The notes under the pieces are model-generated. The model ran no database searches, was not told the origin of the DNA, and saw only the letters and a list, made by a program, of their open reading frames with translations. A stretch of 64,000 nucleotides of DNA from the NCBI GenBank assembly GCA_017935485.1, contig JAGBHO010000047.1:2285-66284 (forward strand), given 5' to 3'. Source of the DNA: Alphaproteobacteria bacterium. Lineage in GTDB: Bacteria; Pseudomonadota; Alphaproteobacteria; RF32; CAG-239. Positions 24,945 to 61,393 of this stretch are shown piece after piece. Made by a program: the position numbers and the translations under genes. The number at the start of each line of letters is the position of its first letter. The first letter of the stretch is position 1.

Positions 24945-25002
24945 GATGAAGAGGTGTTAATCCGAGATATGTTATTATTATATTCGAGCAGAATGCGCCG
25001 CA

Positions 25003-26226: not shown

Positions 26227-26237
26227 ATATAATAGTT

Positions 26238-26276
26238 TAACGCCTTGAAATATATTTATTTTAAGGCGTTTTTATA
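26238..26276 (+). terminator. Hairpin AACGCCTT-N-AAGGCGTT followed by TTTTAT; likely terminates array transcripts
   Basis: Inverted repeat with 3-prime T-run on the plus strand only. Confidence 0.55.
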
Positions 26277-26300
26277 AAATAAAAATATAAAAAAATTTTA

Positions 26301-39719: not shown

Positions 39720-39795
39720 GGGAGTTTAGCTCAGCTGGAAGAGCATCTCGTTTACACCGAGAGGGTCGGGAGTTCGAACCTCTCAACTCCCACCA
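39720..39795 (+). tRNA. tRNA-Val (anticodon UAC), encoded CCA
   Basis: Acceptor GGGAGTT/AACTCCC, anticodon loop UUUACAC, T-loop TTCGAAC. TTGATT-17-TATAAA promoter upstream; terminator 39798-39832. Confidence 0.85.
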
Positions 39796-39840
39796 ATTAA
39801 AAAACCCGCTTTTATAGCGGGTTTTTTAATTGGATGAAGT

Positions 39841-40045
39841 TGGAAGTGAGAACTCCCGAGAAAGGGAGTTTGACTACCAGCGAAAGGCGGATGAAAAGAC
39901 GCCGGTGAGCAGGGCGAATGAGCGCCTGTGAAACTCGAGCGAAGCGATGAGTAACCCTCAACTCCCACCAATTAAAGAGCCACCCTTGCGGTGGCTTTTT
40001 TGTCTTTAATAGAGGTTCGAACTTTCTCGGGAGTTCTTCTTACTC
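39841..40045 (+). repeat. tRNA-like remnant / MITE-like element: 18-bp inverted repeats GAGAACTCCCGAGAAAG flanking a 107-nt segment carrying tRNA-Val-type 5-prime (GGGAGTTT) and 3-prime (CTCAACTCCCACCA) ends with its own terminator
   Basis: 39957-39976 duplicates 39782-39801 (20/20). IR at 39845-39865 versus 40022-40040. The right flank also holds an inverted partial copy of the tRNA T-arm. Confidence 0.7.
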
Positions 40046-40360: not shown

Positions 40361-41104
40361 ATGAAAATGTATATTATCATCGGATTATTGATTATCGGGG
40401 CAGGGTTGCTTGCTTATGATGTTAAGCACAATTATGTGGACTGGCGGACAGCAGACCGCAGCAGTGCCGGAATAGCGCCTTTGCCAAAAGACGAAAAGCA
40501 GGCAGTCGTGCAGGTTTATACTGCCAGAGTTTATAACTGGCGCAAGTATTTTGCAGTGCATCCGTGGATTGCAACAAAAGACAAAAACGCCGATCATTAT
40601 ACCGTTTATCAGGTTTTGGGGTGGAAGCAATGGCGGACAGGCAATGCCGTTGATGTTTCCGAAGACGTGCCGGACAGAAAATGGTATGGCATGAGCCCGA
40701 CATTGTTACAGGATTTGCGCGGAGAAGAAGCAGAAAAGGCAATTTCCGGAATCAAAAAAGCGGTTGCAAATTATCCTTTTGCCTCTGAATATGTTTTATA
40801 TCCGGGGCCGAACAGCAATACTTTTATTTCTTATATTATCCGTCAGGTGCCGGAATTAACGGTTGAATTGCCGCCGATTGCGATTGGCAAAGATTTTCTG
40901 GGATATAATAAGTTTTTTGCCAAAGCAGAGAGCAAAAAAGGGTATCAATTTTCATTGTTCGGCCTTTTCGGTCTGACGGTTGGCAAAGGCGAGGGACTGG
41001 AGATTGATATTTTGGGGCTGGTTTTTGGTATAGATTTTCTGCGCCCGGCTATCAAACTGCCGTTTATCGGCCGTTTGGGTATGTCTGACGCGCCGGTGGA
41101 TTAA
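40361..41104 (+). CDS. Hypothetical N-terminally membrane-anchored protein (possibly DUF3750-like)
   Basis: Start MKMYIIIGLL with AAGAGGG SD; one TM then a soluble domain. Confidence 0.4.
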   Translation: MKMYIIIGLLIIGAGLLAYDVKHNYVDWRTADRSSAGIAPLPKDEKQAVVQVYTARVYNWRKYFAVHPWIATKDKNADHYTVYQVLGWKQWRTGNAVDVSEDVPDRKWYGMSPTLLQDLRGEEAEKAISGIKKAVANYPFASEYVLYPGPNSNTFISYIIRQVPELTVELPPIAIGKDFLGYNKFFAKAESKKGYQFSLFGLFGLTVGKGEGLEIDILGLVFGIDFLRPAIKLPFIGRLGMSDAPVD

Positions 41105-41121
41105 TGAGTTGGAATTTGTGT

Positions 41122-41775
41122 ATGGCTGATTTTATTGTTATTGATAAGAGAGAATGGAAGCGGCGGGAGTATTTTGAGCATTATTACCGGCAGGTTCCCT
41201 GCCGCTTCAGCCTGACGGTTGAACTGGATGTTACCCGACTGGTGCAAAGCGTGAAAAAGCAGGGGCTGATGTTTTTTCCGGTTTTTATTCATTTGCTGGC
41301 TTTGGTCGTTAATCGCCATCAGGAATTCCGGACAGGGTTTAATTCGTCCGGAGAACTTGGCTATTGGCGGCAAGTCTGGCCGGAGTATACGGTTTTTCAT
41401 CCTCAAACCCAGAGCTTTTCTACGTTATGGACACCGTTCTCCGAGAATTTTGATGAGTTTTATCTTAATTATGTTCGGGATTGGGAAAAATATGGTGAAA
41501 TTGAGGGCTTTGCTCCCAAGCCGGAGAGGCCGGAAAATGTTTTTAACATTTCCTGTCTGCCTTGGGTGAATTTTACGTCTTTCAACCTTGATTTGCCGCG
41601 TTCCGATAATTATCTGCTGCCGATTTTTACGCTGGGGAAATTTGTTGAAAAGAACGGCGGAATTTTTGCGCCGCTGGCTTTGCAGCTGCATCATGCGGTT
41701 TGCGATGGTTTTCATGCCGCCTTGCTGATTGACGGGTTGCAGGAGTTGTGTAACGGTTTTGGGAGAGAAAAATGA
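41122..41775 (+). CDS. catA: Chloramphenicol O-acetyltransferase, type A (CAT)
   Basis: Block similarity to CATIII along the whole length; active-site His motif HHAVCDGFHAA; start at MADFIVIDKREW. Confidence 0.85.
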   Translation: MADFIVIDKREWKRREYFEHYYRQVPCRFSLTVELDVTRLVQSVKKQGLMFFPVFIHLLALVVNRHQEFRTGFNSSGELGYWRQVWPEYTVFHPQTQSFSTLWTPFSENFDEFYLNYVRDWEKYGEIEGFAPKPERPENVFNISCLPWVNFTSFNLDLPRSDNYLLPIFTLGKFVEKNGGIFAPLALQLHHAVCDGFHAALLIDGLQELCNGFGREK

Positions 41776-42713: not shown

Positions 42714-43322
42714 ATGATTTATGGATATATTCGCGTAAGCAGCGACAAACAGACGACGGAGAATCAGCGTTTTGAAATTGAGCGTTTTGCAGAAGGCAAT
42801 GGAATTGTGATTGAAAAATGGATAAATGAGACCATCAGTGCAACTAAAGATTTGGAAAAGCGAAAACTCGGCAGGCTTCTTAATGTGCTGAGAACGGGGG
42901 ATATTTTGATTTCTTCCGAGTTATCAAGGTTGGGGCGGAATTTGTTGCAGGTTATGAGTATTTTGCATTTTTGCATGAAGAAAGATATTCAGGTTTGGAC
43001 GATTAAGGACAATTATCGTCTGGGGGCGGATATTCAATCCAAGGTTTTGGCTTTTGCATTCGGATTGTCGGCCGAAATTGAGCGGAATCTGATTTCTCAG
43101 CGTACAAAAGAAGCTTTGGCCCGTTTGAAAGCCGAAGGAAAACGGCTGGGGCGTCCGAAAGGCAGCGGCAACAAGTCTGCCAAATTAAGCGGCAAAGAAG
43201 AAAAAATTGCCGAGATGCTCAGGGAAAATATGTCAAAAAAGAAAATTGCGCAATATTTTTGCGTCAGTCGGCGTACCTTGTATAATTTTATGAAAAAACA
43301 ATTGATAAGCGGGAATAAATAA
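42714..43322 (+). CDS. Serine recombinase (resolvase / DNA invertase family) with C-terminal HTH
   Basis: Start MIYGYIRVSS (catalytic Ser in YIRVSSDKQ); resolvase catalytic domain followed by an HTH. Confidence 0.8.
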   Translation: MIYGYIRVSSDKQTTENQRFEIERFAEGNGIVIEKWINETISATKDLEKRKLGRLLNVLRTGDILISSELSRLGRNLLQVMSILHFCMKKDIQVWTIKDNYRLGADIQSKVLAFAFGLSAEIERNLISQRTKEALARLKAEGKRLGRPKGSGNKSAKLSGKEEKIAEMLRENMSKKKIAQYFCVSRRTLYNFMKKQLISGNK

Positions 43323-43497
43323 CGGACATATAATTTTCTCATATGGCGCTATCTTAAATAATAAAAAAAATTATTCAAGCACTATTTATATAAAAGTGAC
43401 AGTTTTATTGGATAAATTTTAACTGCCTGTCTCCATATGTTTTATTTTTGCCCAAAATAACTTTCGTGATTTTTTATGAGAAAATTATATGTCCGTT
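43322..43497. promoter_or_regulatory. Candidate invertible promoter: 130-bp segment between perfect 23-bp inverted repeats, carrying TTGAAT-16-TAAGAT on the minus strand
   Basis: IR-L 43322-43344 AACGGACATATAATTTTCTCATA; IR-R 43475-43497 is its exact reverse complement; -35 at 43374-43379 and -10 at 43352-43357 (minus strand). Confidence 0.55.
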
Positions 43498-46849: not shown

Positions 46850-47838
46850 TTACCGGCGGCGCCGGATTTATCGGTTCTAATTTTGTGCCGTATTTTGTAA
46901 ATAAATATCCGGAATATCAGGTGATTAATCTGGATAAACTGACTTATGCCGGTAATTTGGACAATCTGGCAGAATGTGCAGGTAAGGCAAATTACCGTTT
47001 TGTGCAAGGAGATATTTGTGATGCGGCGTTTGTTGAAAAGCTGTTTGCGGATTACGACATTCGCGGGGTAGTTCATTTTGCGGCGGAAAGCCATGTTGAC
47101 AATTCGATTTCCGGCCCGCGCCCCTTTGTTGAAACAAATATTGTCGGGACGTTCAACTTGCTTGAAACCGCCCGGAAGCATTGGATGGACGCGCCGGCGA
47201 AATGCAAGCCCGGTTATGAAAAATGCCGTTTTCATCATATCTCGACCGATGAGGTTTACGGCTCGCTGGGTGAAGACGGATTTTTCAAAGAGACAACGCC
47301 GTATGCGCCGAATTCACCTTATTCGGCTTCCAAAGCAAGTTCTGATTTTCTGGTGCGGGCGTATTTTCATACTTTCGGTATGAACGTGACGACTTCTAAC
47401 TGTTCAAATAATTACGGTCCGAAGCAGCATCCGGAAAAGCTGATCCCCAAGATTATCAGCAATTGCCTGAACGAAAAGCCGATACCAGTTTACGGCGACG
47501 GCAAGAATATCCGCGACTGGCTGTATGTGCTTGACCACTGCAAAGCGATTGATTTGATTTATCATCGGGGCAGAGCCGGTGAGACCTATAACGTGGGCGG
47601 GCATAACGAGAAGACCAATCTGGAAATCGTTTCGGAAATCTGCCGGATTATGGATAAAAAGAAACCGCGTGCCGGCGGCAAGAAATATGCCGATTTGGTT
47701 ACTTTTGTAGCTGATCGCGCCGGACATGACAGGCGCTATGCCATTGATGCCGACAAACTGACAAACGAACTGGGCTGGAAAGCCGATGAGAATTTTGCTT
47801 CCGGCATTATCAAAACCGTGGAGTGGTATGTGAAATGA
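46831..47838 (+). CDS. rmlB: dTDP-glucose 4,6-dehydratase
   Basis: Start MSEAILVTGGAGFIGSNF; YxxxK (YSASKASSD) catalytic motif. Confidence 0.9.
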   Translation: MSEAILVTGGAGFIGSNFVPYFVNKYPEYQVINLDKLTYAGNLDNLAECAGKANYRFVQGDICDAAFVEKLFADYDIRGVVHFAAESHVDNSISGPRPFVETNIVGTFNLLETARKHWMDAPAKCKPGYEKCRFHHISTDEVYGSLGEDGFFKETTPYAPNSPYSASKASSDFLVRAYFHTFGMNVTTSNCSNNYGPKQHPEKLIPKIISNCLNEKPIPVYGDGKNIRDWLYVLDHCKAIDLIYHRGRAGETYNVGGHNEKTNLEIVSEICRIMDKKKPRAGGKKYADLVTFVADRAGHDRRYAIDADKLTNELGWKADENFASGIIKTVEWYVK

Positions 47839-49580
47839 AGCCAATACTTGTTCATGCTCATGTTTTTTATTCCGAATTATGGCCGGAGCTTAAATCTTGC
47901 ATCCAAAATCTGGCCGATTATCCGTTTGAGCTTTTTGTAACAATGGTTGTTGATAATAATGAGCTTAAGGCTGATGTAGTGTCGGCTTTTCCCAAAGCTC
48001 ATATTGAGGTTGTTGAAAACCGGGGTTTTGATGTGGGGCCGTTTGTTCATGTATTAAGCCAAGTCGATTTGGATGATTATAGTTATGTTGTGAAGCTGCA
48101 TACCAAACGGGATATGTTTTTGGGCGCTCATTTGAAATATTTTGATATGTCTGGAGCAAAATGGCGTCTTTATGCGTTGGCTATTTTAAAGTCTGAAAAG
48201 GTTGTAAAAAATATAATAAGCGCTTTTGAAAAAGATAAAAAGCTGGGGATGGTGGCGGATTATCATCTGATTGTCAATAAAGAACAAGATGATATTCAGG
48301 CTCAACAGGAAGCAATAAAAATCTTAAAACAACTTGGGTATGAGAATATATCTTATGGTTATGTTGCCGGTACAATGTTTTGGTGCAGAGCATTTCTTCT
48401 CAGCCCCTTAAAAAGGCTGGGTTTTGATCTCTCTGATTTTGAAGAGTCTTCCGCTCATTGTAAAATTTCTACAAAGGCTCATGTGCTGGAACGTTTGTTG
48501 GGATGTCTGGTCTTTGCTCAATCTCAAAAAATTGCAGATTCTATCACTTTTATACAGTTTTCTGGAAAAATCTGTGAAACAGGCCGGAAAATGAAGAGGT
48601 TTTTCTTTCAAAGGAAAATGGATTGTACAGGAAAAATAAAAGTTAAAATATGTGGAATCGGTTTCTCTATAGAGAAATGTAGAGATAGAATATGTAATAA
48701 GGGAAGTAAAATGATAGTTAGTAATATTCTTTCTGTTGATGAGGTTTCTTTGTCGAATAATAAAAGACTTAGATGTTTAGTTTCTAGCCTTCGTCATCCG
48801 TTTAATAAGCAAAAACGTAGAAAATTGAGGGAAGAGCTAATTGAAAAGTATAAAGTAAGAAAATCTTCTTTTAAAAAGGATCCTAATTTCAATGTAAAAG
48901 ATATTCCTATATATTTGATATCTTATAATAGGCTAGGATATTTACAGCAAATGATAACCAAGCTAGAGATGTATGGTCTTACAAATATTCATATTATTGA
49001 TAATCATTCTGATTATGAGCCTTTGTTGGCATATTTAAATGTATTGCCTTATCATGTTTATTTCATGGATAAAAATTATGGACACAGGGTATTTTGGGAG
49101 TCAGGTTTATTTGATGATATCATTCAACACTCTTTATATATAGTATCAGATCCAGATATTGAGTTTAATGCAGATTTGCCTGATGGTTTTTTGTCAGAAT
49201 TATACCGTCTGTTAGGGGAGTATAAGTGTGTAACTAAAGTTGGTTTTGCATTAAAAATAGATGATTTGCCTCAGAATAAGGTTAATGAGACGGTTATTGC
49301 TTGGGAAAGTCGTTTTTGGAAAAACAGACTGAAAGATCGCCTTGATATTTATCATGCAGATATAGATACGACTTTTGCATTGTATCGTCCTGGAAAATTA
49401 GATGAAAGATTTTTTTACTCAGCAATTCGTGTGGCAGGGAATTTTACTGCTAAGCATTTGCCCTGGTATCAAAATGGAAATAATGCTGATGATATTAAAC
49501 ATTATAATCGGACATCTGATTCAAGATTTGCTTCTTGGACAAAAGATATTCAACGTTATAATAATATAATGGAGGGATGA
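47835..49580 (+). CDS. Rhamnan-synthesis protein F (RgpF)-like rhamnosyltransferase fused to a C-terminal glycosyltransferase-like domain
   Basis: About 580 aa; N-terminal RgpF-like block; GC content drops sharply from about 48600 onward, suggesting domain fusion or acquisition. Confidence 0.6.
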   Translation: MKPILVHAHVFYSELWPELKSCIQNLADYPFELFVTMVVDNNELKADVVSAFPKAHIEVVENRGFDVGPFVHVLSQVDLDDYSYVVKLHTKRDMFLGAHLKYFDMSGAKWRLYALAILKSEKVVKNIISAFEKDKKLGMVADYHLIVNKEQDDIQAQQEAIKILKQLGYENISYGYVAGTMFWCRAFLLSPLKRLGFDLSDFEESSAHCKISTKAHVLERLLGCLVFAQSQKIADSITFIQFSGKICETGRKMKRFFFQRKMDCTGKIKVKICGIGFSIEKCRDRICNKGSKMIVSNILSVDEVSLSNNKRLRCLVSSLRHPFNKQKRRKLREELIEKYKVRKSSFKKDPNFNVKDIPIYLISYNRLGYLQQMITKLEMYGLTNIHIIDNHSDYEPLLAYLNVLPYHVYFMDKNYGHRVFWESGLFDDIIQHSLYIVSDPDIEFNADLPDGFLSELYRLLGEYKCVTKVGFALKIDDLPQNKVNETVIAWESRFWKNRLKDRLDIYHADIDTTFALYRPGKLDERFFYSAIRVAGNFTAKHLPWYQNGNNADDIKHYNRTSDSRFASWTKDIQRYNNIMEG

Positions 49581-50452
49581 TGCCTAAAGTTTCTGTACTA
49601 ACACCTTTATATAATACGAATAAAGTACATTTGCAAGAAATGATTGCTTCAGTATTGGAACAGTCATTTCAGGATTTTGAGTTTATTTTGTTAAATGATT
49701 CTCCTGAAAATAAGGAGATTGAACAAATTGTTAAATCTTATAAGGATAAAAGAATAAGATATTATTGTAATGAAAGAAATTTGGGAATTTCGGCCAGCAG
49801 AAATAAATTAATTGATTTGGCAAAAGGGGAATATTTGGCCATTTGTGATCATGATGATATTTCTGTTCCGGATAGATTTGAAGCACAGGTTGCTTATTTG
49901 GATAAGAATCCTGCAGTAGGTGTTGTATCTGGTTTATGTGAAGTTTTTGGTGGTGGAACACATGTGTTTCAGCAGCATCCGGAGTTTGATTTGGATATAA
50001 AAATTCATTTGACGAAAGGTTGTTATTTGGCACATCCAGCATCAATGATACGAAAAAGTGTGTTGTTATCTAATGATATTTGTTACAATGAAAGATATTC
50101 TCCCGCGGAAGATTATAAATTGTGGGAAGATTTAATAGATGTTACAAATTTTTATAATCTACAAAAAGTTTTGTTAAAGTATCGAAGTTTTGATGCAAAT
50201 ACTTCTGTTTTGCAAAATAGAATTATGATTGAAGCATCAAGAAAAATACAGTTGGAAATTAGAGATAAGCACCCTTCTTATTATGATGAAATATCTAGAG
50301 AAATTCCGCTTTCTGAAAAGACTTCCGAAAAGGTTTATTATAAACTATTCGGGATAGTTCCACTGATTAAGATTACCAAGAATAAAGTTTATTTGTTTAA
50401 CATTGTTCCGTTGCTGACAATAAGGAGAAAAACATGCAGAAGCCCAAGATAA
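49577..50452 (+). CDS. Family-2 glycosyltransferase (paralog of the 43750 gene)
   Basis: 291 aa; SVLTPLYN...DHDD; AT-rich. Confidence 0.75.
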   Translation: MMPKVSVLTPLYNTNKVHLQEMIASVLEQSFQDFEFILLNDSPENKEIEQIVKSYKDKRIRYYCNERNLGISASRNKLIDLAKGEYLAICDHDDISVPDRFEAQVAYLDKNPAVGVVSGLCEVFGGGTHVFQQHPEFDLDIKIHLTKGCYLAHPASMIRKSVLLSNDICYNERYSPAEDYKLWEDLIDVTNFYNLQKVLLKYRSFDANTSVLQNRIMIEASRKIQLEIRDKHPSYYDEISREIPLSEKTSEKVYYKLFGIVPLIKITKNKVYLFNIVPLLTIRRKTCRSPR

Positions 50453-51400
50453 CTTTAGGAATTGTTTTTTACAATCAACGAAATTTTATTAAGGATGCTA
50501 TAGCTTCCGTGAAGAATCAGACTATTGATGGGTGGGAATGTATAATTTATGATGATGGGTCTTCAGATGGTTCGGATGAGATAATTTTACGTGAAATATG
50601 TAATGATGGTCGTTTTATTTTTAAACGTTCAGAGAAGCGTAATTTTACACCGTCTGTTGGTCGGAATTATTGTTTGGATCATGTAAAAGGAAAATATGTA
50701 TGTTTTCTGGATGGCGATGATATGTTGGTTAAAAATGCTTTCGAAATTATGTATGGCGTAGCGGAAGCCGGAAATTGTGATATGGTGTCTTGCGGGGCTC
50801 CAAATTATAATATTTCAGTTCCTGTCGATTTTCACTATCATACGGATTTGCCGGCTGCTGGATGTGTAAATGATATTGTTTTTGTGAATACCCCAGTGCC
50901 AGATGGTAGTGCATGGAGATTAAATGGTGATATTGAAAATGGTTGGATCTGGGGTATTCTTTATAAAAAAGAAACTATAAAAGATATTCGTTTTGATTAA
51001 AAGCTGAGACCTTATGAAGATTCATTGTTTTTTATGAATGCATCTCTGGTGATTAAAAGATTTGCGGTAATGAAGACTTCCAGTGTTTTTCATAGAGAAA
51101 ATTCAGGTATTACGAATAAAGGAATAAGTGATGAGATCTTACCGGCAATAGACTCGTTTTTTCAAAAAGCATATTTATTAATCGGTGAGCAATACAGGGG
51201 GGGGGGTATATGATGCCTGGTTGAAAAATATGTGTCGAATATTGCTAAAGCATACGTGGTATATTTATAAATATTGTTATGCAGAGACGAAAGATAAAGT
51301 AAATCTTGTGAGAAAAATTCGTGATTATGCTAAGCCGTATGAAAAATTTGAACCGTGCGGATTAAAAATAATGTTACGCAAACTAAGAATGAAATTGTAA
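50434..51400 (+). pseudogene. Family-2 glycosyltransferase disrupted by an in-frame TAA (50998-51000, in the expected FDEKLRPYEDS motif) and a G10 homopolymer frameshift; candidate phase-variable gene
   Basis: Frame 1 runs 50434-51213; G10 at 51197-51206. With G9 the reading frame would continue to 51400. Confidence 0.6.
51197..51206 (+). repeat. Poly-G tract (10 G) inside the GT2 pseudogene
   Basis: Counted directly from the sequence. Confidence 0.95.
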
Positions 51401-51414
51401 AAAGGAGATTATAA

Positions 51415-52677
51415 ATGAAGTGGAATAAGCCGGGGCATGAGTTTGATGAGTTAGGCGGCAAGTTTATTAAAAACCGAAAGTTGATTGTGATTGGAGATGA
51501 CTTTGATCAGGCCAGTTTTTATCTAAATCGCAGGATAACGGATGTATTGCAGTTCTTAAATGTTCCTGTTAAATTGGTAAAGTTTTCAATAAAAAATCTT
51601 CAAAAAAAGTGGTTTACCAAATTAATAATACATATGTTAAACTTTAAATACAAATTGTTCAAGCAACACGCTGTTATTATTACACATTATAAGTATCAAG
51701 ATGTGAATAAGGCTATTATGTTGCGTAATATTTTGAAAGAGATATTTCCTAATCTTATGGTTTATGATTCGACAGAGTTTTTGGAAAAACAAATGTCAAT
51801 ATTTGCAGCGTATGTACAAGATAAAATTTATGTTCGTGATACCTGCATTATTGTTACAACGGGATGTACATTAAATTGTAAATATTGTTTGAATTTTACT
51901 CCTTTTATTAAACATGCAAAATCAATTTCTTTAGAAAAACTAAAAGAAGAAGCAGATATTTATTTTAAGGTTGTTGATTATGTCGGATTTTTTCAAATTA
52001 GTGGCGGAGAACCGCTTACTTATAAATATTTAGCTGAGTATATTGAGTGGGTGGCTGAAAAATATAGTAATCAAATTGGACAGATATTGTTGGCAACAAA
52101 TGGTACGTTATTGCCAGATGAAAGATTGGCAAATGTGTTAAAAAAATATGGTGTTATTTTACTTTTAGATAATTATACTCAAGCGGTTCCATCGACAAAA
52201 CCCACACGCGATAAATTAATAAACTTTTTGGAGGAACATGGTATAGATTCTCGTGATTATGGTGAAAATCAGCAGTTTTTTAAATTTTTTCCAGCCAATG
52301 AAGATTACTCAAAATTATCAGAAAAAGAGCTTTCTGAACGAGCTGATAAATGTTGGGGATTGCAACCTTGGCGAAATTTACGCGATGGGCGGATTTATTA
52401 TTGTAATTTTTCATCCTTTGCCGTTACAGCGGGTATTATTCAGGATGATCCTCGTAATTATATGGATTTGAAAAATTTTGATTGCTCAAAGAAGAAAGAA
52501 TTGCTTGAATTTTTTATGGGCTATTCAGTATTAGGATATGATACTTTTTGTACTTTGTGTAATGGTATAAATGAGAGTAACACCTTGGAACGGCGACCAG
52601 CAGGGGAGCAAGCCAAAGGAAAATTTGGCTGGCATTCCGGAATGACCTTGTCTGAGTTTGAGGAGATGAACTTATGA
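51415..52677 (+). CDS. Radical SAM protein (CxxxCxxC = CTLNCKYC), function unknown, within the glycan cassette
   Basis: 420 aa; canonical radical-SAM cluster motif; extra C-terminal Cys cluster (CTLCNG). Confidence 0.65.
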   Translation: MKWNKPGHEFDELGGKFIKNRKLIVIGDDFDQASFYLNRRITDVLQFLNVPVKLVKFSIKNLQKKWFTKLIIHMLNFKYKLFKQHAVIITHYKYQDVNKAIMLRNILKEIFPNLMVYDSTEFLEKQMSIFAAYVQDKIYVRDTCIIVTTGCTLNCKYCLNFTPFIKHAKSISLEKLKEEADIYFKVVDYVGFFQISGGEPLTYKYLAEYIEWVAEKYSNQIGQILLATNGTLLPDERLANVLKKYGVILLLDNYTQAVPSTKPTRDKLINFLEEHGIDSRDYGENQQFFKFFPANEDYSKLSEKELSERADKCWGLQPWRNLRDGRIYYCNFSSFAVTAGIIQDDPRNYMDLKNFDCSKKKELLEFFMGYSVLGYDTFCTLCNGINESNTLERRPAGEQAKGKFGWHSGMTLSEFEEMNL

Positions 52678-53354
52678 GTTTTTTGAAAAAGTATCGAAAG
52701 CTTTCTCAGAATAAAGCCAGATTAAAACAATTTTATAATGCCGGGAATTCTATAATTATTATAGAGGGCGAAAAGACAATTGTTAATCCAGCTGAATTTT
52801 TAGAACTTGAACTTTTAAGGATTCCTTGGGGGGGGGTGCAACTTATAATACATAGGCCGTTTGCATTTAAAATGTTGTCTTTGGATGTATGTGGTAATTT
52901 GAGTGTTGAAATTTGCGAAAATATTATTGAGCCAGTCGGACATATCAGAATACTTAAGGCTGTCGGTGATGTTAAAAATTATGTATATATAGGAAAAGGT
53001 TCAGGGATAGGGGATGCTGTTTTTGATGTAACACTTCACGGTAATATAGAAATTGGAGATGCATGTACAATGTCTTGGGGTGTTATGTTGAAAACCGATG
53101 ATACACATCCAATTTATCAAAATGGAAAAATAATTAACCGAAGTAAAAATATTATAATTGGTAAGAATGTATGGATTGGTATGCATGCGTCAATTTTAAA
53201 AAATAGTATGATACCTGACGGGGCTATCGTTGGTGCCTATTCGGTAGTGGCCGGGCGGTTCGATGAAAAGAATTCTGTTATAGCGGGAAATCCGGCCAAA
53301 GTTGTAAAACGTGATGTCCAATGGAAATGTGGACTTATTGATTATAATGATTAA
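52674..53354 (+). CDS. Hexapeptide-repeat (left-handed beta-helix) sugar O-acetyltransferase with an internal G9 tract
   Basis: 226 aa; hexapeptide repeats NVWIGMHASILKNSMIPDGAIVGAYSVVAG; G9 at 52828-52836 lies in-frame inside the CDS as called. Confidence 0.65.
   Translation: MSFLKKYRKLSQNKARLKQFYNAGNSIIIIEGEKTIVNPAEFLELELLRIPWGGVQLIIHRPFAFKMLSLDVCGNLSVEICENIIEPVGHIRILKAVGDVKNYVYIGKGSGIGDAVFDVTLHGNIEIGDACTMSWGVMLKTDDTHPIYQNGKIINRSKNIIIGKNVWIGMHASILKNSMIPDGAIVGAYSVVAGRFDEKNSVIAGNPAKVVKRDVQWKCGLIDYND
52828..52836 (+). repeat. Poly-G tract (9 G) within the acetyltransferase CDS
   Basis: Counted directly from the sequence. Confidence 0.95.
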
Positions 53355-53413
53355 TTTTTGTTTCTTTACATTTTGCTTTTTTCTGTAATAATGGAAGAAA
53401 ATAATGATGGGAG

Positions 53414-53677
53414 ATGAAGATGGCGGCGAGAGTAGCGATTGTCGGGATTATTGTTGAAAATCCGGAGGCGGTGGAAAAGCTTAATGCAATTTTGCATGAG
53501 TATGCCGCTTTTATCATCGGCCGGATGGGGATTCCTTATCGCGAAAAGAAGGTGAGCATTATCAGTATTGCCGTAGATGCGCCGCAAGATGTAATCAGTG
53601 CCATGGCGGGAAGAATAGGGCGACTGAACGGCGTGTCGGCCAAAACCGTTTATTCGGCCAAAGAGGCTGAAAATTAA
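53414..53677 (+). CDS. Small ACT-like protein resembling the TM1266-type putative iron-only hydrogenase system regulator
   Basis: 87 aa; immediately upstream of hydG, as in many FeFe-hydrogenase maturase clusters. Confidence 0.5.
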   Translation: MKMAARVAIVGIIVENPEAVEKLNAILHEYAAFIIGRMGIPYREKKVSIISIAVDAPQDVISAMAGRIGRLNGVSAKTVYSAKEAEN

Positions 53678-53772
53678 ATTCTTTCTTGCATCTTTGCCTT
53701 AAAGTTTGTATAGTTCCGATGATTTTTAACTAACGGGGAAGATTTTCTGACCTGAAAGAGAAAGGCTGTTAT

Positions 53773-55191
53773 ATGTATGATCCGAAATCATTAAAGGCGG
53801 AGGAGTTTATCTGCCATCAGGAAGTTCTGGATACGCTGGAATTTGCCGAGAAGAATAAAAACAATCGCAAACTTATTGATAAAATTCTGGAAAAAGCCCG
53901 TTTGCGCAAGGGATTGAGCCATAGAGAGGCTATTGTGCTGCTGGACTGTGCGCTTGAAGACAAAAACAAAGAAATTTTTGCTTTGGCCGAACAGATTAAA
54001 AAAGACTATTACGGTAACCGTATTGTTATGTTTGCGCCGCTGTATCTGTCCAATTATTGTGTCAACGGCTGTGTTTATTGCCCTTATCATGCCAAAAACA
54101 AACATATTGCGCGCAAAAAGCTGACGCAGGAAGAAATTGCCCGTGAGGTTATTGCTTTGCAGGATATGGGGCACAAGCGTCTGGCTCTGGAGGCGGGGGA
54201 AGATCCGGTCAACAATCCGATAGAGTATATTCTGGAAAGTATCAAAACCATCTATTCCATTAAGCATAAAAACGGTGCAATCCGCCGTGTAAATGTTAAT
54301 ATAGCTGCAACAACGGTTGAGAATTATCGCAAGTTGAAAGAAGCCGGTATCGGCACTTATATTCTTTTTCAGGAAACTTATCATAAAGAAAGTTATGAAA
54401 AACTGCATCCCAAAGGCCCGAAGCATAATTATGCCTATCATACCGAGGCGATGGACAGAGCCATGGAGGGCGGTATTGACGATGTCGGGCTCGGGGTTTT
54501 GTTCGGGCTGGAATTGTACCGTTACGAGTTTGCCGCTCTTTTGATGCATGCCGAGCATCTGGAAGCTGTTCACGGCGTGGGGCCGCATACGATCAGCGTG
54601 CCGCGGATTAAGCATGCCGACGATATTGATCCGAACGTTTTTGACAATGGCATTGACGATGATATTTTTGCCAAGATTATTGCATGCATCCGGATTTCGG
54701 TGCCTTATACCGGTATGATTATTTCAACGAGAGAGAGCAAGGCCTGTCGGGAAAAAGCTTTGCATTACGGCATTTCGCAAATCAGCGGCGGTTCCAAAAC
54801 CAGTGTCGGCGGATATGCCGAAGAGGAACCCGAGGATCATAAATCCGAACAATTTGACGTCAGCGACAAAAGAACTCTGGATGAGGTTGTCCGCTGGCTG
54901 ATGGAGCAGGGATACGTGCCGAGCTTTTGTACGGCTTGTTATCGCGAAGGCCGGACCGGCGACCGTTTCATGGCCTTGTGCAAAAATATGCAAATTCATA
55001 ACTGCTGTCTGCCCAATGCCCTGATGACCCTGAAAGAATATATACAGGATTATGCGTCACCTGAGACAAAGCTGCTTGGCGAAGCTTTGATTGCTTCTGA
55101 ACTGGATAATATTCCGAATGAAAAGGTCAGAAATATTGTTAAGGCTAATTTGGAAAATATTGTCAAAGGACAGCGTGATTTTCGTTTTTAG
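53773..55191 (+). CDS. hydG: [FeFe]-hydrogenase maturase HydG (radical SAM tyrosine lyase; ThiH paralog with C-terminal Cys motif)
   Basis: 472 aa; CVNGCVYC radical SAM motif and C-terminal CTACYREGRTGDRF...C pattern typical of HydG rather than ThiH. Confidence 0.75.
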   Translation: MYDPKSLKAEEFICHQEVLDTLEFAEKNKNNRKLIDKILEKARLRKGLSHREAIVLLDCALEDKNKEIFALAEQIKKDYYGNRIVMFAPLYLSNYCVNGCVYCPYHAKNKHIARKKLTQEEIAREVIALQDMGHKRLALEAGEDPVNNPIEYILESIKTIYSIKHKNGAIRRVNVNIAATTVENYRKLKEAGIGTYILFQETYHKESYEKLHPKGPKHNYAYHTEAMDRAMEGGIDDVGLGVLFGLELYRYEFAALLMHAEHLEAVHGVGPHTISVPRIKHADDIDPNVFDNGIDDDIFAKIIACIRISVPYTGMIISTRESKACREKALHYGISQISGGSKTSVGGYAEEEPEDHKSEQFDVSDKRTLDEVVRWLMEQGYVPSFCTACYREGRTGDRFMALCKNMQIHNCCLPNALMTLKEYIQDYASPETKLLGEALIASELDNIPNEKVRNIVKANLENIVKGQRDFRF

Positions 55192-55403
55192 AACGTTTTT
55201 TTCCATGTCTAATCGATTGAATCTCCCGAGCAGTTTTCGGGAGATTTTTTTTGTCGCATTTGTTGTGCAAATATTAGGAAATCCGAGGATTTCAAAGAAT
55301 TATCCACAGAAACGTTTTTAAAGTCTTAAGCACCTTGATTCGGGGTAAAAGGCATATTATTTTTTACGGCATAATAAATTTTTCATTATTAGGAATTTTA
55401 GTT

Positions 55404-56948
55404 ATGAGTAAAAAAGTTATGTTTTCAACCCATGGTCTGGTTGAAGGTGATTTTGCCTATAAAACAGATGAGCTGGGCTTTCCGACCAATGAGGTCATTT
55501 CCAAAAAAGTTATTACGGGGCAGGATACCGGCGGGCAGGTTTATTATGTCAAAGCGCTGGCTTCCATTTATGACAAAGATTATGATGTAGATTTGGTTAC
55601 CAGAAGGGTTGATCCGAGAATTTGCCCGCAATTCGGCGGCACATTTAAAGATTTGGGGTCGGATATCAATTATACCGTAGAAAAACAATGGCATGAAGTT
55701 GATGCCGGGTTGCACGGACGTGCCAGAAGCAATGTGCTGCGTGTTCCGGCAGGCGGTAATTTTGCTTTTGTTCCGAAAGAGGAAATTGTTCCTTTGCTGG
55801 ACGAATTGATTGATAATCTGGTTGATTATTATAAAAAAGAAGGTTCTTACGAGGATATTGAGGTTGTTGAGGGACATTACCGCGACGGTATGCTGGCCGC
55901 ATCAATGTTGTGCGACAGAGTAGAGAAAGATACGGGACGCCGTCCGGTTATGCTGGTGACAAGCCACTCTCTCGGCCATAAAAAATATGAGAGAAATCTG
56001 CCCAAATATGAAAACGGCGAGATTCCCGACGAAGTTTGGCAATGGCATAATTTTGAAGAGCGTATCAGCCATGAGAAATACGGTTTTGATCAGGCAGACA
56101 TTATTATTGCCACGTCTCCGGACGAGGAGCGCCGTCTGGCCGCAGATCCTTATCTGGCTGATGTCAACAAAGTGACCGTAATTCCGCCGGGGTATAACAG
56201 CCTGTTGTTTAAACCGATGGCAGAAGAGGCAAAGCAGGCTTTGGTTTCTGATTTTGTATATCAGGATCTTGACGGCAACGAGCGCCATATTAACCTGAGC
56301 GGCCGGAAAGTCGTTTCTTCTTTAGGGCGCGTTGTGCCTGATAAGGGTTTTGTCGAGCTTTCCAGAACAATGAAAGAGATTATTGCCAAAGACCGTAACG
56401 TTATTTATATGGTCAGCGGAGAAAAAGGCAACCCCGTTACCGAAGAATGCAAGAAAGAATTGGACGGCGTGTTGGATAATGTTGTTTTTCTGCCGTCTTT
56501 GAATCAGGGACAAATGGCGCGGGTTTATAACGCTTCTTCAATCTTTGTCATGTCAAGCCTGAATGAAGCTTTCGGCATGGTTCCGCTTGAGGCGATGGGA
56601 TGCGGTACGGCGGTTGTTGTCGGACGCAGCGGCTTTAATGATTATGCCCATTGCGCCGATATCCGCCATGACAATGAAGATTTCAGCAAAGCAATCGGTT
56701 TTTATGCGCCATCGCAGGAAGTTGACCGCCGGCGTCAGGTTAAAGCCGTATCGTTGCTGCTGAACAACGAAGAACTCAGAAAGCAGGTAGCGCGGAACGG
56801 TTATGATTTTGTTTCTAAAAACCTGACATGGCAGCAGATTGCCAATAAGAAAAACATGCTTATTCGTGAGGTTATCAGACAAAGAGGAAGCAGGAGGATT
56901 GCCGCCGGCGAAAATTTTTTTAGACGAGCCGTCGGTTACAGCCTGTAA
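55404..56948 (+). CDS. GT4-family glycosyltransferase (sucrose-phosphate-synthase-like)
   Basis: About 515 aa; TGGQVYYV motif characteristic of SPS/sucrose-synthase-type GT-B enzymes. Confidence 0.65.
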   Translation: MSKKVMFSTHGLVEGDFAYKTDELGFPTNEVISKKVITGQDTGGQVYYVKALASIYDKDYDVDLVTRRVDPRICPQFGGTFKDLGSDINYTVEKQWHEVDAGLHGRARSNVLRVPAGGNFAFVPKEEIVPLLDELIDNLVDYYKKEGSYEDIEVVEGHYRDGMLAASMLCDRVEKDTGRRPVMLVTSHSLGHKKYERNLPKYENGEIPDEVWQWHNFEERISHEKYGFDQADIIIATSPDEERRLAADPYLADVNKVTVIPPGYNSLLFKPMAEEAKQALVSDFVYQDLDGNERHINLSGRKVVSSLGRVVPDKGFVELSRTMKEIIAKDRNVIYMVSGEKGNPVTEECKKELDGVLDNVVFLPSLNQGQMARVYNASSIFVMSSLNEAFGMVPLEAMGCGTAVVVGRSGFNDYAHCADIRHDNEDFSKAIGFYAPSQEVDRRRQVKAVSLLLNNEELRKQVARNGYDFVSKNLTWQQIANKKNMLIREVIRQRGSRRIAAGENFFRRAVGYSL

Positions 56949-57107
56949 TGCCTGACCAGACGGCAGCAGAATTAAAAAGCGGAAGCGGAAAACGTTTCCG
57001 CTTTTTTTATGCTGCAGGAAGAGCTGTCTGTTGTTTTTTAGTTTGATTTTTGCAAAAAAGTGTAATAGCTTTAGAAAAATTGAAAAAACATATGAAGAGA
57101 GGTTGTT

Positions 57108-58364
57108 ATGGGAATTAATGCATTGCCGGTCAGAGGTACAAAAGATTATCTGCCGGCGGAGGTTTTGCTGCGGGATTATGTTCAGGGGATTATCCTTGAT
57201 ACTTATAAGAAGTTTGGTTTTCAGCGGATTAATACGCCGATTATGGAGGATATTGAGCGCTTGAACAAAAGCGACGGCGGCGAGAATCTCAGCATGATTT
57301 TCAAAATTCTCAAACGCGGGCAGAAACTTGATTTGAGCAAAGAAAATCTTGTGGAAGACGATCTGGTTGACAGCGGGCTGCGTTATGATCTGACGATGCC
57401 GTTGTCGCGTTATTTTGCCAACAACCGCCAGAATTTGACTTTGCCGTTCAAATGTATTCAGATTGACAAGGTTTTTCGTGCCGAACGTCCGCAAAAAGGC
57501 CGGTTGCGCGAGTTCTTTCAATGCGATATTGATATTATCGGCGATGCGTCGGCCAATGCCGAAGCCGAGCTGATTTATGTAACGACGCAGGCTTTGCTGA
57601 ATATCGGTTTTGAAGATTTTACCGTTCGGGTTAATGACCGCCGGATTTTGACGGATCTGATTAAGTCCGCCGGATTTTCCGATGAAGACGTTCCGTCTGT
57701 CTGCATCAGTTTTGACAAACTGGACAAGGTGGGCTTAGACGGTGTTAAAGCAGAGTTGCTGGAGAAAGAATATGTGCCGGCCGTGGTTGAAAAGTTTATG
57801 GAAATCATCGGCGGCAATGACTTGTCTGATTTGTCGGCGATTGAAAAATTCTGTTCCGATGCGACGGTTCCTGCTAATCTGAAAAAAGTGATTGAGACCA
57901 TTCGGGCGTTGACCGGCGGAAAGTTTAATATCGTTTATGACAAATCTCTGGTGCGCGGCATGGGGTATTATACCGGCATGGTGTTTGAGATTGTCAGTAC
58001 CAAATTTGGTTCTTCCGTTGCCGGCGGCGGAAGATATGACAAGATGATCGGAAAGTTTTTGGGCGAAACGGTACCGGCAGTCGGTTTTTCCATAGGTTTT
58101 GAACGTATTTGCGAAATTTTGAAAGACAGTGAGACCGTAAAAGTGCCGCAAGGTAAGAAGATTGTGCTGGTTTATGCCGATGGCGACGATTTTGGTGCGG
58201 TTTTGAAAAAAACGGCGGAGCTGAGAGCTGACGGCTGGACGGTGAATATGCTCAAGCGCTCCAAAAAGCTCGGTAAACAGCTTGATGCCATGGTTGACAA
58301 CGGTTACAGCCATTCTTTTAATTTCGGAGAATCGACCGAGCCGAAGGAGCTGCAAAAGAAGTAA
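57108..58364 (+). CDS. hisS: Histidyl-tRNA synthetase (class IIa)
   Basis: 418 aa; motif 2 FRAERPQKGRLREFFQCD, motif 3 GGGRYD, anticodon-binding C-domain present. Confidence 0.75.
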   Translation: MGINALPVRGTKDYLPAEVLLRDYVQGIILDTYKKFGFQRINTPIMEDIERLNKSDGGENLSMIFKILKRGQKLDLSKENLVEDDLVDSGLRYDLTMPLSRYFANNRQNLTLPFKCIQIDKVFRAERPQKGRLREFFQCDIDIIGDASANAEAELIYVTTQALLNIGFEDFTVRVNDRRILTDLIKSAGFSDEDVPSVCISFDKLDKVGLDGVKAELLEKEYVPAVVEKFMEIIGGNDLSDLSAIEKFCSDATVPANLKKVIETIRALTGGKFNIVYDKSLVRGMGYYTGMVFEIVSTKFGSSVAGGGRYDKMIGKFLGETVPAVGFSIGFERICEILKDSETVKVPQGKKIVLVYADGDDFGAVLKKTAELRADGWTVNMLKRSKKLGKQLDAMVDNGYSHSFNFGESTEPKELQKK

Positions 58365-58487
58365 CCTTATAAAAGGGAATGAAGGCCCGCAAAATTTGCG
58401 GGCTTTTTTGTTGTTGGAAATATTAAAAATTGCGTTGACGCAGCTCTGCCTGTCTAATATCCTGTTTAATTATTAACGGAGGAAGGT

Positions 58488-59420
58488 ATGGCAGAAATTT
58501 CGGTGATTGTTCCGGCATATAATGCCGAAAAATATTTGGAGAATACGCTAAAAAGCATTTTGAATCAGTCTTTTAGTGATTTTGAAGTTATTTTGGTTGA
58601 TGACGGCAGTGTTGACAAAACATCGGATATTATGGCCGCTTATGCCGCTAAAGACAAGAGAATTAAAGTCATTTGCCAGAAAAACGGAGGGGTCGGTGCG
58701 GCCAGAAATACCGGAATGGATGCCGCTGCCGGAAAGTATTTTTATTTTGCCGATGCCGATGATATTCTTCATCCGCAGATTTTGGAATTTTTATATCAGT
58801 CTTGTGAGAAAGAGCAGGCTGATTTTGCCTGTTGTAATTTTGAAGCCGTTGAGGAAAACAAACTTCCGGAAATTCCGGTTTATGATCAGAATGTATCAAA
58901 CGAAATTGTTGATAATCCTCTTGAATTTATGTGTGCCAACAGAAAGAAAATCAACAATAATGTCTGGACAAAGCTTTACAGGGTTTCGGCACTGACCGGT
59001 TTACGGTTTGCCGATAATCAGGGTGTGGAAGATTTATATTTTAATATATTGGCGATGCGGCGTTTTTCTAAAGGCGTGTTTGTTCCTTTGGTTTTGTATT
59101 ATTATATTTTGTCTTCAGGCTCAATTTCGCGCAGGGATTTTAAAGTAGAAAAGCTTGATGTTCATATGGATTGTTACAAACGGCTGCAAAAAGATTTTGA
59201 AAATGAGCCGGTTTTGTGGCGGCTTATAAAGCGCAGGATTGTCAATCGCAGTTTTTACGGCATGGTTAAAGAGGTTTCGGAATTGCCGAAAGAAAAGGCA
59301 CGGGAGTTGAAAGCTGTTTGGAAGCCGCAAATCAGGGCGTTTAAAAAGACCGGGATTATCGGAACGGAAGGCTTGTCTTTGCGCAAAAGGCTCAAACTTT
59401 TTTTATTTATGCTTTTTTAG
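58488..59420 (+). CDS. Family-2 glycosyltransferase
   Basis: 310 aa; ISVIVPAYN...DADD. Confidence 0.75.
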   Translation: MAEISVIVPAYNAEKYLENTLKSILNQSFSDFEVILVDDGSVDKTSDIMAAYAAKDKRIKVICQKNGGVGAARNTGMDAAAGKYFYFADADDILHPQILEFLYQSCEKEQADFACCNFEAVEENKLPEIPVYDQNVSNEIVDNPLEFMCANRKKINNNVWTKLYRVSALTGLRFADNQGVEDLYFNILAMRRFSKGVFVPLVLYYYILSSGSISRRDFKVEKLDVHMDCYKRLQKDFENEPVLWRLIKRRIVNRSFYGMVKEVSELPKEKARELKAVWKPQIRAFKKTGIIGTEGLSLRKRLKLFLFMLF

Positions 59421-59501
59421 CAATTAACAGTATTTGTTTTTGTTGTTGACCTGATTAAAAATATCGCTTAGCTTTAATTTTAAAGATTAAAGAGAGGTGG
59501 T

Positions 59502-60440
59502 ATGAAAATTTCAGTTATTATTCCCGTTTATAATGTGGAAAAATATTTACAAAAGTGCTTGGAAAGTATTGTAAATCAAACATTTTGTGATTGGGAACTG
59601 ATTGCGGTCAATGACGGCAGTTCGGACAAAAGCGCCGATATTCTGAGGCAATATGCCGAACACGATACGCGCATAAAAGTAATAAACCAGCAGAACAGCG
59701 GCGTTAGTGCGGCTAGAAATGCCGGATTGGAGGCCGCAAAAGGCGATTTTGTCTGCTTTATTGATTCTGATGATTATGTTCATCCGCAAATGCTGGAATT
59801 GTTATTGGGCGCAGCGGAGAAGGAAAATGCCGATGTTGCAATTGCGTCCTTTTGCGGAGAAGGGGAACTTTTTGCCGGAATGTATCAGCCAAGTGAAATT
59901 GAGCAGGAATGCGGCGCTGCCGATGCCGGATATTATCTGCAAAATGTACATAAGCTGAATTACAGCGTTTATCCCAAGTTGATAAAACGTGAGTTGATCG
60001 GCAATGTGCGCTTTGGTGACTGGTCTTGTGCCGAGGATTGGGGCTTTAACCTTGAACTGGCGATTAAAGGGTTTTGTTATGTGAAGCTGTTTGTGCCTTT
60101 GTATGTCTATGTGATGAATGATTCTTCAATATCGCATTCGCCGTTCAGCCGGAAGAAACTTGAAAGTTATTGTGCCGAGGCGGAATATTTTTATGAAAAA
60201 TATCATGATGATAAATCATTTGCGGTGTTGCGGGAGTATCTTTTCCGGAGGCTGATCCTGATGACAATCGGAGAAGCCCGAAAGCCCCAGAGCCGGTCGG
60301 AAAGACGCAAGCTGCGCCGGGAATATGCGCCCAGGCTATTGAGGCTTTACAAAAGCGGCGTGTTTGATATGCGTCAATTTTTGCTGCGGCAGAAAATCAA
60401 GTTTTGGCTTTTTGTGTTTCGGGGTATGTTGAAAATATAA
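59502..60440 (+). CDS. Family-2 glycosyltransferase
   Basis: 312 aa; ISVIIPVYN...DSDD. Confidence 0.75.
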   Translation: MKISVIIPVYNVEKYLQKCLESIVNQTFCDWELIAVNDGSSDKSADILRQYAEHDTRIKVINQQNSGVSAARNAGLEAAKGDFVCFIDSDDYVHPQMLELLLGAAEKENADVAIASFCGEGELFAGMYQPSEIEQECGAADAGYYLQNVHKLNYSVYPKLIKRELIGNVRFGDWSCAEDWGFNLELAIKGFCYVKLFVPLYVYVMNDSSISHSPFSRKKLESYCAEAEYFYEKYHDDKSFAVLREYLFRRLILMTIGEARKPQSRSERRKLRREYAPRLLRLYKSGVFDMRQFLLRQKIKFWLFVFRGMLKI

Positions 60441-60505
60441 GAATGGTTTGACTTGCGATTAAAGGTAGTGTAGTTTTTTCTTGTCTTTATTGAGAGGAAG
60501 AACTT

Positions 60506-61393
60506 ATGAAGAAAATTTTGTCGTTGTTTAAATATTGGCACCTTTGTTTTAATAATCTGATTATCCGCTTATTTTTATGGAAGAAAATGCATAGGAAAAA
60601 GCATTATCTGTCCGTTTGTTCGATTTTTAAAAATGAGGGCAAATATATGAAAGAATGGCTTGATTTTCATCTGATTGTCGGGTTTGAACATTTTTATCTT
60701 TATAATAACTTTTCCTCAGACAATTATCGGGAAGTTTTGAAGCCTTATATTGAAAAGGGGCTTGTGACGCTGATTGACTGGCCTTATCAGCACGGGCAAA
60801 TGGCGGCTTATAACGATTGCGTCGACAAGTTTAAAAACGAGAGCAACTGGATTGCTTTTATGGATTTGGACGAGTTTGCCGTACCGTTGGCGTATGATGA
60901 TGTGAAAGCTTGGCTGAAAAATTATGAAAAATTTCCTTGTGTGTTGGGCTTTTTCAAAGACTTTTCTTCGTCCGGCCGGATGAAAGACGATGAGAGCAAG
61001 CCGGTTATTGAACAGTTTGTCGTTTGTTCCGATTTTGTTTCTCCGTCCATGTTTTTGAATACGGCATGGGCAGGAAGAATAAAAGAATTCCGGCTTTCTC
61101 ATTTTTGCCGGTTTAAATTTTTTAATAAGGTCTGTCCGGAAAATGCCGGTTTTTTGTGCCGCTGGCATGAGCAGCCCAGAAAGCTGGATTTTCAGTTTAA
61201 TCATTATCACAGCAAGAGTTTTGATTATTACGTCAGCAAGAAAATTCCGGGCGGGGATGTCTTCAGCGCGCAGAACAGTTATTCCCTGAACCATTTTTAT
61301 AAAAACGAGCAAAAATGCGGCAAAGTTGATTACAACGCTTACCGCTATCTGATTAAGCTGAAAAATTTTAATTTAGACGATTATCAGGCTTAA
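60506..61393 (+). CDS. Glycosyltransferase-like protein (GT92/DUF23-like)
   Basis: 295 aa; SVCSIFKNEGKYMKEWLDFH pattern. Confidence 0.5.
   Translation: MKKILSLFKYWHLCFNNLIIRLFLWKKMHRKKHYLSVCSIFKNEGKYMKEWLDFHLIVGFEHFYLYNNFSSDNYREVLKPYIEKGLVTLIDWPYQHGQMAAYNDCVDKFKNESNWIAFMDLDEFAVPLAYDDVKAWLKNYEKFPCVLGFFKDFSSSGRMKDDESKPVIEQFVVCSDFVSPSMFLNTAWAGRIKEFRLSHFCRFKFFNKVCPENAGFLCRWHEQPRKLDFQFNHYHSKSFDYYVSKKIPGGDVFSAQNSYSLNHFYKNEQKCGKVDYNAYRYLIKLKNFNLDDYQA

Follow-up and report, generated by a model that had tools for sequence, protein, structure and literature searches.

Can a gene that is interrupted at two sites still belong to a working switch? The question is raised by a family 2 glycosyltransferase (GT2) gene of an uncultured gut alphaproteobacterium (RF32; CAG-239), which lies in a 64,000-nt stretch of contig JAGBHO010000047.1 (assembly GCA_017935485.1). 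The whole of this stretch was analyzed and is called the window below. The gene contains a tract of ten G residues (G10), which puts its last part out of frame, and upstream of this tract an in-frame TAA codon. A preliminary description of the window had taken it for a contingency gene caught in an OFF state, and had explained the TAA as either a further inactivating mutation or an error of sequencing. Having compared the gene with its relatives in public contigs, we consider it quite likely that it is a poly-G contingency gene, which is OFF by its G10 tract and additionally inactivated by the TAA. This reading is supported by tract-length variants, by identical alleles with nine and ten G residues (G9 and G10) and by purifying selection on the C-terminal part of the gene.

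Two Lesions in One Glycosyltransferase Gene

The coordinates of the gene and its parts are given in Table 1. The gene starts with the ATG at 50434 and its first frame encodes the N-domain of a GT2 enzyme. A Pfam profile search matched residues 9–135 to PF00535 (E = 1.4e-26; 93.8 bits against a cut-off of 23.3), and the frame contains the nucleotide-binding DD at residues 40–41 and the DGDD (DXD) motif at residues 93–96. It ends at the TAA in codon 189. Past this codon the same frame has no further stop before the TGA that follows the G tract. The tract occupies codons 256–258 of the 321 codons and shifts the last 63, up to 51400, into the next frame, where they form part of an open reading frame at 51185–51400. 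In all these points the preliminary description of the gene was borne out. The annotated protein is the N-terminal fragment, which an exact-sequence look-up at NCBI identified as MBP3346655.1, “glycosyltransferase family 2 protein.”

The effect of the tract was assessed by changing its length in silico. As had been proposed, G9 restores the continuous C-terminus. With G9 or G12 a frame of 321 codons is obtained in which a single internal TAA is left. With G10 the product would be 259 aa long, and with G8 or G11 it would be 262 aa long (ending with ...GGGYMMPG for G11). Both OFF frames terminate 1–7 codons past the tract, and for this reason C-terminal switching, i.e., an alternative long C-terminus, was ruled out. 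Recoding of the TAA was ruled out as well, because the studied gene and its neighbors end in ordinary stop codons, including the TAA at 51398–51400.

A tract of this length is exceptional in the window. The number of G runs falls from 444 of length 3 to 129 of length 4, 17 of length 5 and one of length 6. Runs of 7–8 are absent, and then there are one G9, located in a nearby acyltransferase gene, and one G10. C runs longer than 6 were not found in the window. A first-order Markov model predicts about 0.24 runs of at least 9, and by the observed decay far fewer still would be expected. The 28 window genes contain 65 Gly-Gly codon pairs, 58 of which begin with GGC, and the sole GGGGGG pair is that of the acyltransferase tract. 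Given the decay of run lengths, the low Markov expectation and the avoidance of GGG-GGG, the G10 tract is more than a chance feature. Within the 321-codon frame it also exceeds the poly-G cut-off of at least 7 that PhasomeIt applies to phase-variable genes and that was used for Campylobacter phasomes (PMC6321876).

Tract Length Among Related Contigs

A protein search returned an intact orthologue of 321 aa with 91% identity (P0001) and a protein of 257 aa with 74% identity, the C-terminus of which reads ...GGG (P0002). The 90% identity cluster of the window fragment has members of 321, 262, 259 and 224 aa. The intact orthologues P0106/L010/L011 share 99.7% DNA identity with the window gene. 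The preliminary description had pointed to a comparison of alleles as a check, and the tract was read in 23 related public contigs from several projects (L001–L003 and L010–L029). A scan of genome contigs contributed one close relative (L003), while L004–L009 carry distant Acidobacteriota GT2 genes and were left out. A megablast search of a plasmid collection with positions 49500–53400 gave no match.

Tract lengths of 6, 8, 9 and 10 were observed, along with one interrupted form. The commonest state is ON, by G9, in 11 of the 23 contigs (L003, L010, L011, L018–L025). G10 (OFF) is found in three contigs (L012, L013, L029) in addition to the window, and G8 (OFF) in four (L014–L017). The most distant orthologue, L002, which is ~70% identical, also has G8 and is OFF, as its ON length would be G7 or G10. 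Three contigs have an in-frame tract of six (G6; L026–L028), and the remaining one, L001, is ON with an interrupted tract, GGGTGGGGG. Orthologues without a homopolymer, which by the preliminary description would have spoken against its reading, were not what the survey showed: the tract occupies the same codon positions in the orthologues of all lineages, including L002, and is interrupted in L001 only. The residues flanking it differ between orthologues (R-G-G-V vs. L-G-G-D).

Tract length also differs between alleles that are otherwise identical or nearly so. L012 and L013 (G10) have no mismatches to L021–L025 (G9) over the rest of the gene. L029 (G10) is one base apart from the same G9 group, and two substitutions separate the window (G10) from L010 and L011 (G9). 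The corresponding truncated proteins have been called in other samples, the 259-aa product in two contigs (P0109, P0113) and the 262-aa product in five, which agrees with a length change that toggles between the full-length (321 aa) and a truncated product. ERZ16268146 and ERR10610537 both have G10, and ERZ16268164 and ERR10610555 both have G9. Judged by matching accession offsets only, each pair appears to represent one run assembled by two pipelines. If so, the agreement in length within the pairs makes assembler noise unlikely.

Two further observations concern the history of the tract-bearing alleles. Upstream of the tract L014–L017 (G8) resemble the G9/G10 lineage (dS about 0.1 vs. L021), and downstream of it they are identical to the G6 lineage (vs. 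L026), a mosaic pattern that suggests recombination with a breakpoint near the tract. In L002 (ENA ERZ15614832) a GT2 gene, the tract-bearing GT2 gene and a radical-SAM gene are found together at ~70% identity, in another glycan locus that has DegT aminotransferase, GT61 and TOD1-like genes. The three genes have the appearance of a tailoring module that is portable and retains its G tract.

Selection and Predicted Structure

The ratio of nonsynonymous to synonymous substitution rates (dN/dS; Nei-Gojobori) between lineages is 0.05–0.10 upstream of the tract and 0.08–0.12 downstream of it in the G9 frame. By this measure both halves of the gene are under purifying selection. Since dN/dS is ~0.05–0.12 on either side of the tract, the ON frame is, as far as substitution patterns tell, that of a working gene. 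In an alignment of 28 homologues D41, D93, D95 and D96 are invariant and D196 of the ED motif is conserved in at least 90%.

The structure was modeled with AlphaFold2 for the intact orthologue P0001 (predicted template modeling score 0.83; predicted local distance difference test score >90 over residues 1–120). The model comprises a GT-A domain (residues 1–220), followed by helices at 233–256, 260–280, 285–305 and 308–320. PF00535, the DXD motif with the upstream DD and the GT-A fold of the modeled orthologue all place the enzyme in GT2. The best matches among solved structures were TarP, CgT, TarS and RmlT (Foldseek E about 1e-17, TM score 0.65–0.68). The Arg-Gly-Gly encoded by the tract falls in the loop 256–260 between the first two C-terminal helices of the model. 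Tracts of G6, G9 and in principle G12 would be tolerated because they encode an inter-helix loop, whereas OFF alleles are predicted to lack the last three of the four C-terminal helices.

The Nonsense Codon

At codon 189 all 23 relatives, including L010 and L011, have GAA (Glu189). The TAA of the window is a private G-to-T change, that is, a premature stop at a codon which is a sense codon in the orthologues, as in a pseudogene. The preliminary description had placed the stop in the conserved acidic FDE...YED block, and correctly so: the codon precedes the ED motif by six codons, and the TAA removes the near-invariant Asp196. E195-D196 are still encoded past the stop, but the translated 188-aa product is without them. 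In the orthologues the N-domain and the ED motif, which contains the putative catalytic base, are parts of one chain; in the window they are not.

Between the window and L010 six positions differ over 5.3 kb (47800–53069), three of them in the 967-bp GT2 gene, and two of these three are inactivating. Other nonsense mutations were found among the relatives. In L026–L028 (three samples from two projects) codon 52 of the GT2 gene has independently changed from TTA to TAA, in combination with the contracted, in-frame G6 tract. In the radical-SAM gene directly downstream, GAA is changed to TAA at codon 365 in L016, L017 and L027, all of which come from lineages with GT2 off or broken. Because nonsense mutations recur at these two sites, each in several samples, and because half of the differences between the window and L010 fall in the GT2 gene, two of them inactivating, the codon-189 TAA is plausibly a true mutation. 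The window allele would then be a pseudogene that is locked OFF. Slipping back to G9 would not restore the enzyme, because the TAA lies upstream of the catalytic ED motif. A locking mutation of this kind would be expected, because a gene in OFF phase should be invisible to selection.

The Surrounding Glycan Locus

The GT2 gene is part of a locus with the order Mpi-family invertase, GT2, rmlA, rmlC, rmlD, rmlB, RgpF-like, GT2, the studied GT2, radical-SAM and hexapeptide-repeat acyltransferase. The rmlACDB genes, the RgpF-like gene and the other GT2 genes suggest that a rhamnose-containing surface polysaccharide is made. By its gene content the host envelope is Gram-negative, since genes for LpxK and a Kdo transferase are present in the window. 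A sigma-70/terminator scan found no terminator between the GT2 and radical-SAM genes, and an Rfam scan of the window gave nothing relevant to the studied GT2 gene. Among relatives the radical-SAM gene is very conserved (92–100% aa).

The acyltransferase gene carries the second G tract. Its length is G9 also in L010, L011, L018 and L019. In L039 it is G10 (OFF) and the gene is split into pieces of 60 and 172 aa, being otherwise 99.85% identical over the gene. In place of the tract, TCTGGGGGTG or TCTGGAAATG is found in other lineages, which makes the acyltransferase tract the younger one.

At the head of the locus the gene for the Mpi-family serine DNA invertase is directly followed by the sole pair of inverted repeats in the 64 kb, which encloses a segment of 131 bp. 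The called 202-aa form of the invertase is present in 39 collection blocks; an exact look-up with the 210-aa open reading frame gave no match, while the 202-aa form was matched. Public contigs whose flanks are nearly identical have the segment in forward orientation (L010, L030, L034–L036) or inverted (L031, L032). In two contigs the sequence breaks off exactly at the inverted repeat. With an invertase, inverted repeats and both orientations in public contigs, the element at 42714–43497 is, by all sequence evidence, a real DNA inversion switch. No sigma-70-like site with at least 9/12 matches was found in the 131-bp segment; there are only 8/12 candidates, e.g., TTGAAT-16-TAAGAT, which faces the glycan genes in the inverted form.

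Table 1. Positions of the glycosyltransferase gene, its parts and the associated features of the locus in the window.
Feature	Position	Strand	Remarks
Mpi-family serine DNA invertase gene	42714–43322	+	NCBIfam NF009949, 318.7 bits vs. cut-off 272
Invertible element: perfect 23-bp inverted repeats (43321–43343 / 43475–43497) around a 131-bp segment	43321–43497	.	Both orientations in public assemblies
Upstream GT2 glycosyltransferase gene	49577–50452	+	Overlaps start of studied gene by 19 nt
Shine-Dalgarno-like AAGGAG	50422–50427	+	6 nt 5′ of ATG at 50434; read from sequence
Studied GT2 glycosyltransferase gene, whole (321 codons in G9 frame)	50434–51400	+	TAA and out-of-frame G tract here
N-terminal reading frame, 188 aa, ends at nonsense codon	50434–51000	+	Pfam PF00535
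In-frame TAA, codon 189	50998–51000	+	GAA (Glu) in 23/23 related contigs
Poly-G tract, G10 (OFF)	51197–51206	+	Flanked by A and T; encodes Arg-Gly-Gly
C-terminal 63 codons, three predicted helices	51207–51400	+	Out of frame here, conserved
Premature TGA in G10 frame	51211–51213	+	Product would end ...YRGGGI
Radical-SAM gene, directly downstream	51415–52677	+	Intact here; GAA-to-TAA at codon 365 in three related contigs
Hexapeptide-repeat acyltransferase gene, ON here	52674–53354	+	Carries second G tract
Second poly-G tract, G9 (ON)	52828–52836	+	Acyltransferase codons 52–54

Some other features of the window were recorded. A TM1266-family regulator gene and HydG ([FeFe]-hydrogenase maturase) lie at 53414–55191 between the glycan genes and further glycosyltransferase genes (55335–61393); the L001, L012 and L018 lineages have FeoAB in their place. 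The variable stretch just upstream of the invertase contains a gene for a type-A chloramphenicol O-acetyltransferase (41104–41775; NCBIfam NF000491, 289.8 bits against a cut-off of 270), which is also present in L033, while most related contigs have a Ham1-like gene there. A type II CRISPR-Cas system is found at 24027–30072, with Cas9 at 26641–30072 (minus strand; TIGR01865, E = 5e-140) and Cas1 at 24027–24944. On the minus strand in the 39720–39885 region there is an Rfam “Trp_leader” match of 43.3 bits (gathering score 41), which abuts a tRNA gene (39720–39792) and is probably marginal.

Proposed Phase Variation and Rival Explanations

The mechanism that we propose is translational phase variation of a single glycosyltransferase that tailors a surface polysaccharide. 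Slipped-strand mispairing at replication would add or remove G residues in codons 256–258. G9, as well as G6 and G12, would yield the full enzyme of 321 aa, and G10 or G8 a frameshift with a stop at 259 or 262 aa. The addition of one sugar to the glycan would thereby become a heritable, stochastic and in principle reversible ON/OFF trait. The truncated form would presumably be without activity. What kind of glycan is made and which sugar is added is, like the rate of switching and its reversibility within a clone, a matter of inference from the sequences. The gene displays every sequence-level feature of a simple-sequence-repeat (SSR) contingency gene that was looked for.

Several points weigh against this reading. 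All of the sequences come from consensus assemblies, where the length of a homopolymer can be miscalled, and length heterogeneity within a population, and hence a switching rate or reversibility, was not observed. In some lineages all samples agree in length (G8 in four contigs, G9 in eight), so that switching may be slow compared with the sampling. As 80% of the gene precedes the tract, the catalytic GT-A domain is complete in the OFF product, which could have some residual activity. The TAA was seen in this metagenome-assembled genome (MAG) only, among the 24 alleles compared.

Since the window comes from a MAG, both lesions might be consensus errors and the gene might in truth be intact, with G9 and GAA. 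This is the state of two contigs with 99.7% identity over the gene. Besides, homopolymers are error-prone, the TAA is unique to the window record, and oxidative damage during library preparation is known to produce spurious G-to-T changes. For both lesions to be artefacts, two independent errors within 200 bp would be required, in 5.3 kb with six differences from L010. Moreover, the tract lengths recur between samples that are independent and, it appears, between separate assemblies of the same runs, the 259-aa and 262-aa products have been called in two and five contigs, respectively, and the other nonsense mutations, in GT2 and in its neighbor, occur in three contigs each and point to real inactivation in these populations. 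We therefore regard an artefact as quite improbable. Plain decay, in which a dispensable tailoring gene is on its way to being lost, the G run is no more than a hotspot for mutation and reversible switching is not selected, accounts for the two independent nonsense mutations in GT2 and the one in the adjacent radical-SAM gene, and it would fit the G8 OFF state that is fixed in four contigs of one lineage. The contraction to G6 and the interruption by T in other lineages resemble stabilization, and reversibility was not observed. However, a decaying gene would hardly keep the tract at the same site down to ~70% identity despite differing flanks and the avoidance of GGG-GGG, and the low dN/dS on both sides indicates long-term purifying selection. 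ON is the commonest state, identical alleles are found both ON and OFF, and the second variable tract next door and the inversion switch at the locus head suggest a locus organized for variation. Decay is thus an unlikely explanation.

The conserved frame downstream of the tract could also mean that G10 is bypassed, by transcriptional slippage or by +1/-1 ribosomal frameshifting, so that some full-length protein is made. Long homopolymers can provoke slippage of RNA polymerase, but this is best documented for A/T runs, and no stimulatory structure or slippery heptamer was seen, although none was looked for. The ON alleles already explain why the C-terminal frame is conserved, and in the window allele the codon-189 TAA would still end translation. 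We find bypass hardly credible. A poly-G contingency gene in its OFF phase, with an additional nonsense mutation in the window allele, remains the explanation that we favor.

Comparison With Known Systems

The closest parallel is found in the poly-G/C glycosyltransferase genes of the lipooligosaccharide (LOS) and capsule loci of Campylobacter jejuni (wlaN, cgtA; PhasomeIt, PMC6321876). They share with the gene described here the intragenic tract of G8–10, the change between full-length and truncated open reading frames by one G, the clustering of several tracts in one glycan locus and the variation of tract length among otherwise identical alleles. In contrast, the host is here an uncultured gut alphaproteobacterium and not a member of the Campylobacterota, the 64 kb contain two tracts only, the GT2 tract is located towards the 3′ end (80% of the gene), and the window allele is also locked by a nonsense mutation.

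The Neisseria genes lgtA, lgtC and lgtD (poly-G) and the Helicobacter pylori genes futA and futB (poly-C) follow the same logic of slipped-strand mispairing in a homopolymer of a glycosyltransferase gene. These switches vary a terminal or side-chain sugar of an outer-membrane glycan, i.e., LOS or lipopolysaccharide. Their tracts are usually 5′-proximal, however, and they are experimentally proven in cultured pathogens. The lgt and fut enzymes mostly belong to glycosyltransferase families other than GT2.

A tract near the 3′ end has a counterpart in Helicobacter canadensis, where a homopolymer is reported to alter the C-terminus while the N-terminal domain stays (PMC2823697). There it results in C-terminal switching, while in the present gene it results in truncation.

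With respect to predicted structure, the modeled orthologue resembles TarP and TarS of Staphylococcus aureus and RmlT of Listeria monocytogenes, in which a GT-A domain is likewise followed by a helical C-terminal region. The role of these tailoring enzymes is to decorate a polymer, wall teichoic acid, with a side-chain sugar. Sequence identity to them is just 17–21%, and because the present host is Gram-negative the acceptor cannot be wall teichoic acid. Finally, the inversion switch resembles the Mpi system of Bacteroides fragilis in its serine invertase, in a short segment between inverted repeats with which a polysaccharide locus opens, and in the occurrence of both orientations. It differs from it in its alphaproteobacterial host, in having one repeat pair in 64 kb, in the lack of an assignable promoter within the segment and in being joined with poly-G tracts in downstream tailoring genes.

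Implications

Poly-G contingency loci are textbook knowledge for cultured mucosal pathogens such as Campylobacter, Neisseria, Haemophilus and Helicobacter. The present gene extends this device to an uncultured, commensal-type gut alphaproteobacterium. We found no description of SSR phase variation for this gut alphaproteobacterial group in the literature searched, an absence which is not proof. As identical alleles differ solely in tract length, such a switch can be documented from public metagenome assemblies alone. For annotation it means that the 188-aa “glycosyltransferase family 2 protein” in NCBI is a fragment of a switchable gene of 321 codons.

A more far-reaching and tentative possibility, which we would not yet bet on, is that the locus is subject to combinatorial phase variation in two tiers, with Mpi inversion at its head, poly-G switches in at least two tailoring genes (GT2 and acyltransferase) and recurrent locking of the GT2/radical-SAM module in the OFF state by nonsense mutations. 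To our knowledge, control of a single locus by both an inverton and SSRs is not described for this clade. The recurrent locking, if true, would imply strong recurrent selection against the decorated glycan, e.g., by phage or host antibody. For the ecology of the gut, the inversion switch, the two poly-G switches and the recurrent nonsense mutations would mark the glycan as a target of strong, fluctuating selection.

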